Of a DNA stretch of 64,000 nucleotides, positions 1 to 23,477 are shown in pieces; position 1 is the first letter of the stretch; the number at the start of each line of letters is the position of its first letter. The DNA comes from a virus (Duplodnaviria > Caudoviricetes). The stretch spans positions 5,147 to 69,146 of the IMG/VR virus record IMGVR_UViG_2901040167_000002; one strand, given 5' to 3'. Position numbers and translations under genes: made by a program. Below the pieces are notes generated by a model, which saw only the letters and a list, made by a program, of their open reading frames with translations, made no database searches and was not told where the DNA came from.

Positions 1-3000
1 TCCTCCACTTGCAATGTTGCTATTTACACTATTAACTATTGCATTAGGAGTTATTTTACTTTCAGCATTACTAATTCTATTGGTGTTTGATGTAATTTTC
101 CCATTTAAAGTATTAGTAGTTGATTCTATTTGTGATACTTTAGAATTTATACTGTTAGTTTTTTGCGTAAAACTACTTTCAGCGGTATTTATTTTTTCAT
201 TTGATAATTTAATTTGATTATTAATATTAGTAACTGTTTTATCTATATCACTTTTAGAAACCTTTGTATTTATTTCATTTTTCAACACATTTAAATTGCT
301 CTGAACATTACTTACTTTACTATTAACAGTATTTATTTGTGTATTTGTGTACCCATTAGCTTCATTCTTAGCTGTATTAGCTTTAGATTGTGAACCTTGT
401 GTATCTTCTATTTGAATCCATCCACTCCAAGTAGTATTACTTGTACCATGTCTTTGATACGTTGCTGTACTATTACTTCTAAAAGTTTGTACTGGATAAC
501 CACCACTTGCATCTCCCCAAGGGACTTTAGTCTCTAGAGTACCATATGGATTACCACTTGCTGTTATACCTATAGAATTTGAATATTTAAACTCAGTAAT
601 AGATTGATTAGGATAAGTCTTAAAATACCAACCTGGACTTTGATTATCATTTCTTGTATCTGGAATATTTCTTGATCCCCAAATAGCCTCATTCTTTTTT
701 TGTTCAGCAATTGAATTAGCATGACTATTTGCAGAATCAATAGCTTGTTGTTTAGCTGAATTAGTATAAGAATTAGAACTATTAATGGCTTCACCTTTTG
801 CACTTTCAATATTACTTCTTGTGTCTTCTACAGCAGGTTTCCAATCAGTTATCTTGCTTCCTATCTCATATTGAATCCCTGTCACCCATGCTTCTCCAGC
901 AGAAGTTCCTTCAAGTAAAAACTTAGCATTAAGCCCAGTTATAGTTTTACCATCACAATTTGATAAATCTATAAAACCTCTATATTTAGTCCATGTTTCA
1001 TTAGTACCGACCACACTTAATATACCTGGATACCAAGCATATGAATCAGTTCCAAATACATCTAATTCTCCAAATCTTAATCTATTCCAGTCATTCACGC
1101 CTAGTGTTACATTTCTATATTTCGCCCAAAATGATATTGCAATTTTTTTACCGTTAAATGCGTTAGGATTTATATTAAGTCCAGGAATTAAGTCGTAACC
1201 AGAAATTCCTTGCTTATTAGATAAATACAAACATTTTTTAAACGGAACTTTTTTAGATCCCTCACCAGTTACGTCTACTATTGTCCCAGCTCCTGATATA
1301 ATAGGCTCTGAGAAATCTCCATTAATAAAATAATTTCTTGATCCTATAGTTATTTCATTAATTTTATTATTTGTATTTTGATTTGCAGTATTTATTGCCT
1401 CATTCTTTTTTGAATCAGCTATTGATTTCGCCTGATTAACTGCATTATTTATCGCATCTATCTTAGCCTTATCAATTTTCCCGTTTAAAAGTGTACTAGT
1501 ATTGCTTATATTTGTTTCTATAGTCGAAGTCTTGCTATTTAAACTATTTACACTAACTCCAAAACTCTCTTTTGTTTGTTTTAATTCAGTAGAAACTTGG
1601 TTAATTTTCTCATCTGTTTTCTTAGCTAAATCAATTATAGCCTTTAAGTCATCAGGTGCTGGTGTCCAATCGGAACATTTTGTACCTTTTTCTATCTTTA
1701 AATTCCTATAGTCTAAATAAACATTAGGGCTGCTATCTAGAGCAATTATTAAAGCCTTATTGGTTGTACTAGGTAGCGTAAACCCTTCTAGCTTGATTCT
1801 AGTCCATTGGTCTTTTGATAAAGAAACTTGTTTCCATTTTTCATTTTCAAAATTAAATCTAGATACAACTGAATCTTTAGATACTCTAACATCTAATGAC
1901 ATAGAATATAATGTTTTTGAGTCAGTTACTAGCTGTTCACTTATATTATCGCCTGTACAAAAATAATATAAAGAAACTGTTTTCCCCACATCTGGAATAG
2001 CTCTATAAAACTTTCCTGTATTATCACTCTGTAAAGTAGAAGTTCCTAACCCAGTATTATTAGGATTAAATTTAAGTAAATCTGATTTTAAAATTAAATT
2101 TCTTCCACCAAACTCTATATTCGAAATACTTCTATCAACATCAGATTGACTTACTTTAGTAGATATTTGTTCTTTTAATATATTAACCTCACTTGTAGCT
2201 TTGCTAAGATTAGTATTTACAGTTGTTATTTGAGCTGTTGTATAAGCATTAGCGCTATTAATTGCATTGTCTATATTATCTTGAATATCTTCGGGCGCAG
2301 GTGTCCAATCTGTAGGTTTATTTCCTTTTTCTATTTTAACATTTTTAAACTTCAAGGTTGCCCAAGCATTGTATTGAATATCTACAAAATTATAAGTATT
2401 GGAAGAATAATTATTTATATAAGCAGTTTTTACTATCTTTTTATATGAACCAAAATCAGCTCCTCCACCGCCAGCAGGTATACTAATATTTTCAATATCT
2501 TTATCACATATATCAATATTCATAGTGGGACTTCCTGTTGCATTTGTAGAAACTAAAGCACTAAATGTCCAATAACCATTCTCTGTAATTACTCCTGAAA
2601 TTCTAGCTATATTTTCACCTGTTTGATTACCTTCAAATATAAATCCATTCTCATTATTATTTCTAGTTAAAGTTACTTTACCCGCCAATTGATTCATAGG
2701 TGTAGTTTTCTTAAAAAAGTTTCTTCCACCTATTTTAATATTATTTATAGAATCAATAGTATTTTTATTGGCTTGTTTTATAGCATCTTGTTTAGTAGTA
2801 TTAATATCAGTGCTAATAGTATTTGTAAACTGTGTAAATGTTTGATTATCTACTTTTAACTTAATAGCATTGTCTAAAGCTTGTATTGTAGTTTTTTGAG
2901 TTGATAATTCCTTACCATGCTCTGTAATAGTGTTATTTTGAGTTGATAATTCAACATCTAAAGTTCTATCACCTATTTGAACCTTAGTACCTTTAATAGT

Positions 3001-20750: not shown

Positions 20751-21296
20751 TTATATTAACATATATAATGGTATACAATCTTTAATATACTTTCCTTCAT
20801 CCCTTTTCATATATTCATTAAAATCTTTAAACCCATGCCTATTATAAAAATTATAAGCTTTAGCAACAGAATATAAAATAATATTATGAACACCACAAAC
20901 TTCTTCTGATATTTTACGTATTGAACTTAGTATATCAAAAAACATCATATTACTAAAATTATTTAATTCCTCTTCACTCTCATCATATTTCAATCCTTGA
21001 TATTCCTTATCTATGGCGAAAAATTTAATTTCTATTGATGGTAAATAATGATTTTTATTATTTGATTCATATATCAAAGCAGTTGTAGATAATGTATAAA
21101 AGCCTATAATCTCTTTATTATCTGAATTAATAATAATCTTAGTTACTCCTTTATTATTAAAATAATCTTTAAGAGCTGTTTCTTTAATGTACGTATTAAT
21201 ATTTTCGCTTGCACAATCAAATTGATCAATAGCATACTCTCTAAAAGATTTTTCATCTAAAAGTATTACTTCATATTTAATATCTTTACCTAACAT
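20751..21296 (-). CDS. GNAT acetyltransferase, putative toxin
   Basis: FDC...INTYIKETA, IIGFYTL, FAIDKEYQG, AYNFYNRHGF as in TacT/AtaT-like GNATs; abuts a small upstream ORF. Confidence 0.8.
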   Translation of the reverse strand: MLGKDIKYEVILLDEKSFREYAIDQFDCASENINTYIKETALKDYFNNKGVTKIIINSDNKEIIGFYTLSTTALIYESNNKNHYLPSIEIKFFAIDKEYQGLKYDESEEELNNFSNMMFFDILSSIRKISEEVCGVHNIILYSVAKAYNFYNRHGFKDFNEYMKRDEGKYIKDCIPLYMLI

Positions 21297-21297
21297 T

Positions 21298-21501
21298 CTA
21301 TTTAATTATTAAATTCTTTCTTAATATTTCTGCTTTTTTTTGTATTTTATCCCACATATTATTATCTCTTTTTTGACTTAAAAAATCATCAACTTTATCT
21401 TCTCTAATCATTAAAATCCTATCTACTGGTTTTGCCATTACTGCCATATTAATCAACTCCCTTTTTCCTATAACTTGACCATCCCATCTCTTAATATCCA
21501 T
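21298..21501 (-). CDS. Small putative antitoxin with two in-frame starts (21501 and 21447)
   Basis: GGGTGA-ATG and GGGAG-ATG starts; directly upstream of the GNAT gene; N-terminus shared with 32747..32947. Confidence 0.65.
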   Translation of the reverse strand: MDIKRWDGQVIGKRELINMAVMAKPVDRILMIREDKVDDFLSQKRDNNMWDKIQKKAEILRKNLIIK

Positions 21502-21958
21502 AACACTCACCCCAACTTAATATAACTAAGTTTAGTTTATCCTAATCTAGCCAAATAACTTGTAGAACTGTAAATATTATGTTTATTTTTTTTCAGTCAA
21601 ATTTCTTAATTAATCTTGATTATTTTACACAATTATATTTCTTTTTCCAATTATTATATTATAATAATACCATTCAATCCGCTAATTTTCAATATTTAGC
21701 TATGATTCTTAACAATTTTTGTATTAAAAAAGAACTTAGCTTTTACTAAGTTCTAAAATATGATATATTATTTAATTTTAACAGATTCCTTAGTGTCAAT
21801 TTCTTTTGGTTGTATCTCTTTCTCAAAAGATAATATATCATTACTCTTAAAAATTACTCCAACAAACTCAAAAATACTATTTGTATCTGTAATATTTGTT
21901 ACATAATACATCTTTTATTCCTACCATATCTCATAAACTAGATTATTCCTTATAATAT

Positions 21959-22059
21959 AAAAAGCAGAGGTTATACCTCCGCTTAGTCTTCAGCAAGCTT
22001 TTACAAACTCCCCTACTTAATATATAATCTTCAGCGAATTTTTACAAATTCCCTTACTT
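21959..22059 (-). ncRNA. Two-repeat hairpin RNA followed by a terminator
   Basis: 32 nt direct repeats at 21987-22018 and 22028-22059 (27/32 identical, stem changes keep pairing), then AAGCGGAGG-TATAA-CCTCTGCTT-TTT. Confidence 0.6.
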
Positions 22060-22372
22060 TATAATCTTAATTACTCTTTATATTTATACTAATAATATGA
22101 TTTTTCACAGTTTACTCTGGCATGGAAATGGGTTTAAAGTCTCCATTCCGACTTATATGTTTTTCTTTCAGCATATGCCTATCGTATTTGTGGTTATACA
22201 TATAAACCCTATTAGAATTCCATAAGAAACAGCATATACGAACCACTTCTTACTTCAACATTCAACAGATACACATGTTATCTGCTCTCTATTAATATAT
22301 GCAATTTTGCATAATTGATATTCTTTTAAAATCTAATTGAAAAATAAATTATTAATTATTCTTTATATCTAT

Positions 22373-22400
22373 ATTATACTCACATTTGATTACTTTACAA
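22373..22400 (-). promoter_or_regulatory. SigA-type promoter TTGTAA-16-TATAAT with no downstream ORF
   Basis: Consensus-like hexamers; near-duplicate of the promoter at 22599-22626. Confidence 0.55.
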
Positions 22401-22415
22401 TATTTTCACACCATT

Positions 22416-22592
22416 TTGTATATAAAACAGCCGGTTTATACAATCCCTCTCAGAATTATACTTCTTCATTTTTATAGAGGGAAGTGCCTCTTGAATTATA
22501 GTCCTTCAAATATTTATAGAGCGAAGGGACTCTTGAATCTATAGACCGTTTATTAAAGTAAAACAGCGAAAACCTTGAATTATCTTATCTAT
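22416..22592 (-). ncRNA. Tandem pseudoknot array (type III antitoxin-like RNA), three units plus a partial unit and a terminal hairpin
   Basis: AUUCAAG/AUUCUG starts at 22580, 22538, 22496, 22456; each full unit can be drawn as an H-type pseudoknot; AT-rich hairpin at 22416-22443. Confidence 0.65.
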
Positions 22593-22598
22593 ACTTAT

Positions 22599-22626
22599 AT
22601 TATACACATATTTGAGTACTTTGAAA
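22599..22626 (-). promoter_or_regulatory. SigA-type promoter TTTCAA-16-TATAAT upstream of the pseudoknot array
   Basis: Perfect -10 box about 20 nt before the first repeat. Confidence 0.55.
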
Positions 22627-22685
22627 TACCATTTGCACCCTTTTGAGGATTCTTATAAATTGCTATATTTTTTTATTTATATACC

Positions 22686-23477
22686 TTAAGCTACATTATG
22701 TATATCATTTTCAACCTTTTTAATTAATTCAGAATATTTTTCTTTACTAATTTTATTATCTTTTATTAATCTTTTAATTATGTAAAGAACTCCTTTAGGT
22801 TTTATCATAGTCTTATTGTGCCATCTTCCATCTCTCCCAAATACCTTAACAACTTTGAAATAATCATGATATCTTTGATAAGGAATATTACCCTCCATTA
22901 GTATACTTTGATCTCTCATCCATTTGAATAAGTTTGTTCTCCCTAGATGTGGTATATCTAATATCTTTGATAGTATTTTTATTTCTATTAAACCGTCAGT
23001 ATTAGTGAATTTATCAGCTAAGATAACTTTAGGTTGTTGGTCTTCTATTAATTTTTTCTGCTTCTTAGTTATTTCCTGCTCTTCTTTTAATTTAGTTAAT
23101 ATCCCTATCATAAAATCTGGATCTTCAACAGCTTTTTCTAAAACATTATCAGTCATATATGCACCATGTTTACGAATTGTTGGTAATACTTCATCCATAA
23201 CCCAACTTTCAAACTGTTGAGCTTTAGGCAATTTAGACTTTATTATTAACCTATAGATATCACCTTCTGGAATTAATCCAATCATTTGACCACCTTCTTT
23301 AAAGCTGTCGTGTTTTACGACACCTTTACAATGTCTTGATATAGCATCTCTTGGGTTAGAATAGCCTAAGCACTTTGCAATATCCTTTCCAACAAAATAA
23401 GGTTTTTCATCAATCATTAATGATCTTACCTCTCCAAACTCTTGATTCTTAAAAATTTCTAATTCATTATTTTTCAT
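22686..23477 (-). CDS. BRO-N/KilAC phage antirepressor
   Basis: FKNQEFGEVR...PYFVGKDIAKCLGYSNPRDAI...FESWVMDEVLPTIRKHGAY and GRTNLFKWMR. Confidence 0.92.
   Translation of the reverse strand: MKNNELEIFKNQEFGEVRSLMIDEKPYFVGKDIAKCLGYSNPRDAISRHCKGVVKHDSFKEGGQMIGLIPEGDIYRLIIKSKLPKAQQFESWVMDEVLPTIRKHGAYMTDNVLEKAVEDPDFMIGILTKLKEEQEITKKQKKLIEDQQPKVILADKFTNTDGLIEIKILSKILDIPHLGRTNLFKWMRDQSILMEGNIPYQRYHDYFKVVKVFGRDGRWHNKTMIKPKGVLYIIKRLIKDNKISKEKYSELIKKVENDIHNVA

Follow-up and report, generated by a model that had tools for sequence, protein, structure and literature searches.

What is a tandem array of small, pseudoknot-like repeats doing in a prophage when no toxin gene follows it? The question is raised by a stretch of DNA of 64,000 nucleotides (hereafter the window; positions are counted from its first letter), which corresponds to a large prophage whose long ORFs lie almost all on the minus strand. 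The prophage is located on contig C18 of a Clostridium-type genome (3.93 Mb, 100%-complete) and is distantly SPbeta-like, its terminase region being 63–64% identical to that of SPbeta-group Bacillus phages. The array lies inside a 1.2-kb gene-free stretch of the minus strand, from 22685 to 21511, in which this strand is devoid of ORFs of 60 aa or more. The stretch is part of an accessory island within the tail module. A sequence-only reading of the locus had described a TATAAT promoter, units of 42, 42 and 40 nt separated by a conserved linker, a partial fourth unit and an AT-rich hairpin, and had proposed a stand-alone decoy RNA directed against several type III toxins. The promoter, the units, the linker and the partial unit were all found on the minus strand. 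The features of the region are as follows:

Upstream of the gene-free stretch: HNH/homing endonuclease gene and two anti-repressor-like genes
22599–22627, minus strand: promoter P1, with TATAAT at 22604–22599 preceded by TGTG
About 22627–22621, minus strand: weak -35-like element of P1, TTTCAA/ATTTCA
22539–22580, minus strand: unit 1 of the putative ToxI array, 42 nt
22497–22538, minus strand: unit 2 of the putative ToxI array, 42 nt
22457–22496, minus strand: unit 3 of the putative ToxI array, 40 nt, an additional, diverged copy of unit 2
22441–22456, minus strand: partial fourth unit (AUUCUGAGAGGGAUUG), which gives unit 3 its 3'-side linker
22373–22400, minus strand: promoter P2, TTGTAA-16-TATAAT, 10/12 consensus matches, driving the drum RNA
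22152–22263, minus strand: drum RNA (Rfam RF02958), 73 bits against a cut-off of 43
21962–21984, minus strand: first strong intrinsic terminator past P1 and P2 (-14 kcal/mol, z -4.7, with a U tract)
Downstream of the gene-free stretch: 70-aa ORF and GNAT acetyltransferase gene, then the tape-measure protein gene

The three units (42, 42 and 40 nt) and the partial fourth represent approximately 3.3 copies on the minus strand. The motif ATTCAAG was present at positions 22580, 22538 and 22496 of this strand with a spacing of exactly 42 nt, and a degenerate linker, ATTCTGAG, was found at 22456, after the third ATTCAAG. All four linkers needed for the release of three units are present. The double-linker pattern TATA(N0-1)ATTCAAGR-N24-34-TATAATTC gave two matches in the window and none in 100 shuffles. 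TRF reported a period of 42 with 2.2 copies, 82% matches and a score of 115; it missed unit 1, which is too diverged. Being paralogues with identity at 34 of 42 aligned positions, units 2 and 3 are not independent of each other, unit 1 being independent in sequence. Unit 3 differs from unit 2 at six positions and by a 2-nt indel. Two of the changes, one on each side, turn the S1 closing pair from U.G in unit 2 into G-C, and three changes, as read from the alignment, re-create a 5-bp S2 in a register shifted relative to unit 2. The predicted start of P1 is near 22592. Owing to its weak -35 element, P1 was not picked up in the consensus promoter scan.

The folding of the units was assessed with an exhaustive enumerator of H-type pseudoknots based on summed stacking energies. 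The best structure in unit 1 combined the stems S1 AAGGU/ACUUU and S2 GCUGUUU/AAACGGU (loops 4/1/3), the best one in unit 2 was made of S1 AGAGU/GCUCU and S2 CCUUC/GAAGG (loops 1/0/10), and in unit 3 the optimum was S1 AGAGG/CCUCU with S2 ACUUC/GAAGU (loops 1/0/11). The stems drawn earlier by eye were thus recovered as the optimum in each unit, S1 of unit 2 being one pair longer than drawn. Among 1000 dinucleotide shuffles, 0.3%, 0.3% and 0.2% equalled or surpassed the energies of units 1, 2 and 3, respectively, and so did 1.7%, 0.5% and 0.5% of 1721 natural windows of 42 nt taken from this strand; with 1000 mononucleotide shuffles the corresponding fractions were 0.042, 0.010 and 0.000. Each unit of the window has an unusually strong H-type pseudoknot potential. 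The nested minimum free energy of the whole array was unremarkable (z -0.28), as expected if the signal in the array is pseudoknotted. As a positive control, the same metric flagged the units of two of five toxIN arrays from the same genus (L343 and L345: -14 to -19, p<=0.007), and few units in the three others.

The array was compared by blastn with a collection of plasmids. A single match was obtained, in the C. perfringens record NZ_CP120752.1, where positions 1824–1912 correspond to window positions 22583–22492 (88% over 92 nt, covering units 1 and 2). This 36-kb circular record encodes terminase, portal, capsid and tail proteins together with ParM and DnaD, which indicates a phage-plasmid. 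The next gene (1961–2497) starts 49 nt downstream of the match and is annotated "type III toxin-antitoxin system ToxN/AbiQ family toxin"; it scored 117.5 bits on Pfam PF13958 (ToxN_toxin). The order of the elements at this locus (L351) is a TTGACA-type promoter, three units (u0, u1 and u2), a partial unit running into a terminator, a ribosome-binding site and toxN. The units measure 36, 40 and 41 nt, are all different and are joined by AUA|AUUCA linkers, and the terminator is strong (-13.3 kcal/mol, z -4.8, U tract). A search with an exact 23-mer from unit 2 revealed two more loci with the u0-u1-u2 arrangement and toxN: L357, from IMG/VR, in which toxN has an in-frame stop at codon 42 and ToxI is intact, and L358, from a metagenome, in which toxN is intact.

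The correspondence with these cognate loci is unequal along the array. The P1 -10 element and the leader of approximately 30 nt aligned with their promoter and leader. Unit 1 was identical to u1 of the C. perfringens phage-plasmid at 33 of 42 aligned positions, and unit 2 matched the u2 of L351, L357 and L358 at 40 of 42. The extra copy of unit 2, that is unit 3, was absent from all three cognate loci, and the partial fourth unit is the counterpart of the partial unit which forms the 5' arm of the terminator there. The linker of the cognate arrays reads AUUCAGAG. A more distant locus, L352, encodes a ToxN 45% identical to the cognate ToxN and has units of 35–37 nt with the linker AUAU|AUUC, as in the family of the window. 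When the phage-plasmid was compared with the genome of the window (E<=1e-5), the similarity consisted of the array and two 74-nt matches at 80–81%, which fits the capture or exchange of a small module.

A common architecture appeared across the units of the window, L351 and L352. The same H-type topology was computed for all nine units (shuffle p<=0.048), with S1 beginning 4–5 nt past AUUC, a second loop of 0–1 nt, and the 3' arm of S2 ending 3–6 nt before the next linker. The reverse complements were weaker in 9/9 units, which fits an RNA read from the minus strand and using G.U pairs. The sequence of the stems varied from unit to unit, and the linker was the conserved part. The stems observed across these units were:

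S1: AAGGU/ACUUU, AGAGU/GCUCU, AGAGG/CCUCU, AAAGGU/ACCUUU, AAGG/CCUU, GGUG/CGCC, GGUG/CACC
S2: GCUGUUU/AAACGGU, CCUUC/GAAGG, ACUUC/GAAGU, UCUG/CAGA, CUGUUU/AAAUAG, UUCGC/GCGAA

The presence of homologous arrays directly upstream of ToxN in three other loci points to ToxI by descent, and bears out the earlier assignment to the type III antitoxins. The length of the repeats and the copy number are inside the ranges given for toxIN in Table 2 of PMC3401426 (31–62 nt repeats, 1.9–5.6 copies). We consider it very probable that the array belongs to the ToxI family of type III antitoxins and stands apart from any toxin, as an orphan ToxI. The other families named by the sequence-only reading, CptI and TenpI, are unlikely, as the toxin preceded by the homologous arrays is ToxN.

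The 3' side of the locus looks different. The type III layout held for the promoter and the tandem pseudoknot repeats and failed at the terminator expected after them. The AT-rich hairpin that had been taken for this terminator has a folding energy of -4.7 kcal/mol (z +0.97), no better than that of shuffled sequences (167 of 200 were as good), and has no U tract. A consensus scan of the minus strand found no terminator before 21984–21962. Homology to the cognate locus stops inside the partial fourth unit, and the 3' arm of the terminator, the U tract and toxN are gone. As anticipated, no candidate toxin gene follows: the minus strand has no ORF of at least 60 aa before 21510. A search with PF13958 (ToxN) over the whole 100%-complete genome gave nothing at E<=1, and the cognate ToxN protein had no match in this genome at E<=1e-15. 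In 383 genomes of the family, no ToxN closer than 45% identity to the cognate protein was found. Among 143 TRF arrays of period 25–70 in the window's own genome, inspection by eye of the ORFs next to 13 intergenic-looking ones detected no ToxN-like gene. With neither a terminator nor an adjacent ToxN, the locus belongs to the ToxI family by descent and is not a toxin-antitoxin system.

The difference between the units had been read as a sign of a multi-specific decoy, on the assumption that type III repeats are normally near-identical. This argument is not supported by the cognate arrays, each of which serves a single toxin (L351, L357 and L358) and contains three equally different units. Mixed units are thus normal in this ToxI family and no sign of multi-specificity. 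Nor are near-identical repeats the norm in the genus. Eight toxIN loci were found among 124 same-genus genomes, with within-array TRF matches ranging from 74% to 100% and one array too mixed for TRF; three of the eight were at 74–76% or too mixed for detection. None of these eight arrays resembled the units of the window. In the crystal structure of ToxIN, the single-stranded tails of ToxI reportedly make much of the contact with ToxN. Such a role of the tails would explain conserved linkers combined with freely varying stems. For the ToxI of phage ΦTE, PMC3475682 describes changes in the pseudoknot core as tolerated, including a compensatory pair, and two contact nucleotides as critical.

Two further sources, X2 and X3, contain the array. 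The X2 contig covers window positions 22212–22734 and the X3 contig positions 22126–22681, both with the array, P2 and drum and without a toxin gene. The X3 contig (5.6 kb) diverges from the window upstream, just past the stop codon of Ant, which shows that the upstream context differs. The counts given here concern the variants listed for X2 and X3, beyond which 17 further entries exist:

Units 1–3, 124 nt: 1 change among the variants listed
Drum, 112 nt: 2 changes among the variants listed
Other non-coding sequence within 22264–22681, 294 nt: 17 changes among the variants listed (13 substitutions and 4 indels)

Among these variants, the comparison between units 1–3 and the flanks gave a Fisher p of 0.018 (0.075 with substitutions only), in a test of little power as the orphan copies are only 2–4% apart (n=3). 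The sole listed variant in units 1–3, at position 22548 in unit 1, changes a G-C pair into G.U and keeps the base pair; the G.U state of this pair is also present in the cognate u1. Another variant, at 22452 in both X2 and X3, turns the last linker into AUUCAGAG and makes it match that of the cognate arrays. It had been asked earlier whether the array was only the decayed leader of a deleted toxin gene. As to the origin this is right, the cognate loci showing that the array is the 5' part of a toxIN; the conservation, the intact pseudoknots and linkers, and the extra unit speak against mere decay.

Behind the array come a second promoter and a second RNA. P1 and P2 are paralogous over approximately 70 nt, and no terminator separates the array from the drum RNA downstream. 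In 5 of 8 other drum loci, drum adjoins the gene of the nuclease PBECR4, with the layout drum, terminator, gene in four of the five. Seen from the protein side, drum adjoins 3 of the 13 PBECR4 genes in the genus. No PBECR4 was detected in the window's genome at E<=1. None of the eight other genome loci of drum had a tandem array upstream, and neither did L310 or L359; L310 is one of three drum-like sequences, judged by eye, among the 26 matches of a pattern search for drum in viral_contigs. Elsewhere both RNAs occur directly upstream of a ribonuclease gene, ToxI upstream of ToxN and drum upstream of the BECR-fold nuclease PBECR4 (in the five of eight loci). It is conceivable, and in our opinion rather improbable, that P1-ToxI-P2-drum would be a dedicated phage "RNA antidote" cassette, co-transcribed against two RNase-based defences, drum/PBECR4 then being an RNA-antitoxin (type III-like) system. 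This two-RNA island would depend on drum also being an orphan antidote.

Searches for other families or for relatives of the array gave little. No Rfam family was found at the array at the gathering threshold. At E<=10, the only matches there were preQ1, on the minus strand, and psRNA6, on the plus strand at 22385–22426 (9.3 bits). Like the units, the preQ1-I riboswitch (RF00522) is a small pseudoknot of the H type whose third loop is rich in A, and unit 3 has AGAGG...UCCCUCUAUAAAAA like the riboswitch of the host. Unit 3 was nevertheless rejected as a preQ1-I riboswitch, with 10.8 bits against a cut-off of 39 and a loop of 6 nt where the model has 12; no fewer than 20 sites of the genome outscored it, the true riboswitch with 52.6 bits and 19 others with 13.6–22.5. 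At the DNA level, the "phages" collection gave no match to the array and 61 relatives gave only short ones, AT-rich and promoter-like; none of the 123 genus genomes that were scored (seven more being unscored) matched over the array. A loose linker pattern hit at least 119 loci, of which those inspected were coding sequences or giant-virus repeats. With a corrected pattern, 31 viral and 112 genome_contigs loci were obtained, and the inspected ones were single chance matches except L207, an array of approximately nine copies of 44 nt between Crp/Fnr-like and ferredoxin-like genes, which is unrelated. Both patterns are unable to find the cognate arrays, in which the linker is AUUCAGAG. The small ORFs near the array had no match in Pfam (44 and 47 aa) and belonged to no family in NCBIfam or PADLOC (24, 44 and 47 aa).

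Several known systems can be set beside the array. The C. perfringens toxIN array (NZ_CP120752.1, and also L357 and L358) shares with it homologous sequence, the AUA|AUUCA linker, a related -10 element and leader, pseudoknot units that differ from one another and an incomplete last unit. It differs by the extra first unit u0, the strong terminator and the ToxN gene, all absent from the window, whereas the window has the extra copy of unit 2, followed by the second promoter and drum. Canonical toxIN, as presented in PMC3401426, resembles the window in its promoter and tandem repeats, and the topology is that of two of five same-genus ToxI arrays; the canonical locus also includes a terminator and a toxin gene, and the window has neither. 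[quoted passage not shown]

By analogy, the closest functional counterpart of the array is the pseudo-ToxI, or the hijacked ToxI, of ΦTE. ΦTE evades ToxIN by expansion of its pseudo-ToxI repeats or by the capture of ToxI through recombination (PMC3475682). The wild type has 1.5 repeats, the escape mutants 4.5–5.5, and one mutant captured ToxI. The expanded or captured arrays suppress ToxN-mediated abortive infection, the RNA being expressed during infection. The likeness to the window lies in phage-borne ToxI-type repeats without a toxin gene. The differences are that ΦTE is a lytic Gram-negative phage, that its wild type lacks one full RNA and that its active forms are lab-selected (PMC3475682), whereas the window has three full units and its own promoter in a natural, temperate Clostridium phage. 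To date, the mimicry of a type III antitoxin by RNA has been described for a single lytic phage, of Pectobacterium, and for the most part in lab-selected escape mutants (PMC3475682). In the literature searched, supplementary tables being outside its scope, we came across no prophage described as carrying a natural orphan ToxI array. PMC12283969 does not use the terms "orphan", "solitary" or "mimic", and "orphan" is absent from PMC5086642. What appears to be new here, judging by homology and gene content, is the natural occurrence of a full-length ToxI without its toxin on a temperate phage of Firmicutes; the ToxI kind itself was already known.

We propose that the array may be a working anti-ToxN RNA, like the pseudo-ToxI of ΦTE, and regard this as an even call. 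In this model, the ToxI array derives from a toxIN carried by clostridial phage-plasmids and, in the SPbeta-like prophage, has lost the terminator and the toxN gene. It would still be transcribed from P1, probably with read-through into drum. If the cell contains a ToxN of the cognate subfamily, encoded for example by a toxIN phage-plasmid that is co-resident or was already there, this enzyme would cleave the linkers, and the released pseudoknots of 40–42 nt would trap it. ToxN-mediated abortive infection or plasmid addiction would in this way be neutralised in trans. The proposal is modelled on the mechanism shown experimentally for ΦTE. A function is supported by the persistence of the array in X2 and X3, the pair-keeping variant, the intact linkers and the double change in unit 3 which preserves S1. 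Against it stand the weak -35 element of P1, from which we infer transcription, and the lack of any ToxN closer than 45% in the 383 family genomes. Unit 1 is also only 33/42 identical to its cognate, and single base changes abolished the antitoxicity in ΦTE (PMC3475682). The nonsense codon in toxN of L357, next to an intact ToxI, shows that a toxin can be lost while the array survives passively.

A possible, if somewhat doubtful, rival explanation is that the array is an inert remnant. The terminator and toxN would have been lost by recombination or by replacement with P2 and drum, and the promoter and array would not yet have decayed. Such a history agrees with the ancestral promoter-units-terminator-toxN order of the cognate loci, with a homology which breaks off within the partial fourth unit, at a place occupied elsewhere by the terminator, and with the P1/P2 direct repeats flanking the array, which resemble a recombination scar. 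Besides the inactivated toxN of L357, there is a precedent in L348, where a ToxI-like array of two units has been left without a toxin, upstream of another toxIN. Inertness is harder to reconcile with a pseudoknot potential in the top percentiles in every unit, with linkers that are all intact, with one pair-preserving change in 124 nt as compared to 17 in 294 nt of flanks (variants listed, three sources), and with the two-sided change in the extra unit that keeps the S1 pair. The array has, moreover, been kept in three sources despite direct repeats of approximately 70 nt which could delete it. The absence of a terminator between the array and drum, and the fact that P1 and P2 are paralogous, would also allow the array to belong, together with drum, to a longer non-coding RNA, in which it might be a 5' leader, stabilise the transcript or serve as a processing platform, in a role unrelated to ToxN. 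The array, P2 and drum are indeed found together on single contigs in X2 and in X3, the latter diverging upstream after the Ant stop. We find this improbable, given that drum has its own promoter and that no such array exists at other drum loci (0/8 genome loci, L310, L359).

Little remains of the multi-specific decoy, in which each unit would target a different type III toxin (ToxN, CptN or TenpN). The stem sequences do differ between units, and ToxN-family toxins are present in 8 of 124 genus genomes. We hold this version to be very unlikely, since the arrays serving one adjacent ToxN (L351, L357, L358) are just as mixed, a single linker is common to all the units and also to the L352 subfamily, and there is no resemblance to any of the eight genus ToxI arrays. 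Least credible of all, in our judgement, is an element not acting as RNA, either protein-binding repeats at the DNA level or a 24-codon ORF (22469–22395) with repeats upstream. The spacing of 42 bp amounts to four helical turns, and the ORF exists, with two of three of its X2/X3 variant sites (among the variants listed) being synonymous. Its start has no ribosome-binding site at a normal distance, however, and it matches no family. The homologues are, judged by their layout, transcribed antitoxin arrays, and the pairing relies on G.U and loses strength in 9/9 units when the opposite strand is read.

If the array is indeed a working anti-ToxN RNA, the capture of an RNA antitoxin would be a standing counter-defence or anti-addiction strategy of the mobile elements of Firmicutes, and the array would identify the ToxN subfamily that is targeted, a phage-plasmid-borne one. 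Should the cassette with drum also prove true, drum/PBECR4 would be a previously unrecognised type III-like system. Mixed ToxI units are ordinary in clostridia, which matters for searches assuming near-identical repeats.

The window carries a drum RNA (RF02958, 73 bits) downstream of its toxin-less ToxI array, on the same strand, with further elements on both sides.

Features around the ToxI array and the drum RNA
22575-22650, minus: P1 region, containing the promoter of the array; paralogous to the P2 region over about 70 nt
22395-22469, minus: 24-codon ORF, starting in ToxI unit 3 and ending in the -35 box of P2
22345-22425, minus: P2 region, containing the promoter ahead of drum; paralogous to the P1 region over about 70 nt
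22152-22263, minus: drum RNA
21985-22059, minus: two related hairpin units of 41 and 34 nt after drum; the changes between them preserve stem pairing
21962-21984, minus: strong terminator, 3' of the hairpin units
21768-21911, minus: 47-aa ORF, preceded by a plausible ribosome-binding site
20751-21510, minus: 70-aa ORF and 181-aa GNAT acetyltransferase, the former ending 1 nt before the GNAT start codon

A gene for the BECR-fold nuclease PBECR4 (PF18813) adjoined drum in five of the eight other drum loci considered here (L021, L023, L024 and L304-L308). The order was drum, terminator and PBECR4 gene in four of these five, with a promoter upstream of drum in three of the four (L305 is truncated at the end of its contig), and in the fifth locus the gene was convergent with drum. 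[quoted passage not shown] No PBECR4 gene was present beside drum in the three remaining loci or in the window, and none was found in the whole genome to which the window belongs. Counted from the protein side, drum stood beside 3 of 13 PBECR4 genes of the genus. The literature search returned no published link between drum and PBECR4; the supplement of Weinberg 2017, which possibly names an associated protein, lay outside that search.

The ToxI array is bracketed by the P1 and P2 regions as direct repeats, copies of a single promoter region. The repeats may be the scar of a recombination event, or they may be a means of co-regulating the array and drum. Beyond the terminator that follows the hairpin units, the 47-aa ORF had no family match in Pfam, NCBIfam or PADLOC, and a contig of sample X3, which has the same toxin-less arrangement, lacks positions 21731-21892 and with them most of this ORF. 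The 181-aa acetyltransferase belongs to phrog_1758, with weak matches to Pfam GNAT families; the pair that it forms with the 70-aa ORF looks similar to a module of a small antitoxin and a GNAT toxin, and it had no match in NCBIfam or PADLOC.

Other ToxI arrays were found with a broken toxin or with none of their own. In the cognate toxIN locus L357, on an IMG/VR contig, the reading frame of toxN (which begins at locus position 659) is interrupted by a stop at codon 42, while the three-unit ToxI array and the terminator of this locus are intact. In the same-genus genome of L348, a promoter and a two-unit ToxI-like array similar to the L344/L345 type, without its own toxin, occupy locus positions of about 1095-1175 (plus strand). 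Directly 3' of them come another promoter, a dissimilar array with 2.1 copies of 52 nt, a terminator and toxN. L348 is thereby a further case of a stranded ToxI array, here adjoining a second RNA-toxin unit.

Another tandem array is unrelated to the ToxI array. It lies in L207, from an Anaerocolumna MAG, at about 1250-1620 (minus strand), between genes for a Crp/Fnr-like regulator and a 4Fe-4S ferredoxin-like protein; its approximately nine 44-nt repeats, each with TATAATTCAAGAAG, may represent promoter or operator units in multiple copies.

Unit 3 of the ToxI array shares the stem AGAGG/CCUCU and the 14-nt run UCCCUCUAUAAAAA with the true preQ1-I riboswitch of the host (L335, G000:C2:32857-32901, 52.6 bits). 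The likeness probably reflects convergence on a pseudoknot whose A-rich loop docks on the stem. The 24-codon ORF that starts in this unit has no ribosome-binding site nearby; its three variant sites in samples X2 and X3 comprise two synonymous changes and one Cys to Gly replacement.

A further drum RNA (59 bits) was located at positions 2506-2633 of L359, on a 404-kb plasmid of C. perfringens (NZ_CP013615.1), within an array of 11 tRNA genes and a 2.9-kb stretch without annotated proteins. Four tRNA genes also flank L369, one of the PBECR4 genes of the genus. Together, these two locations hint that drum, PBECR4 and tRNA biology are connected.
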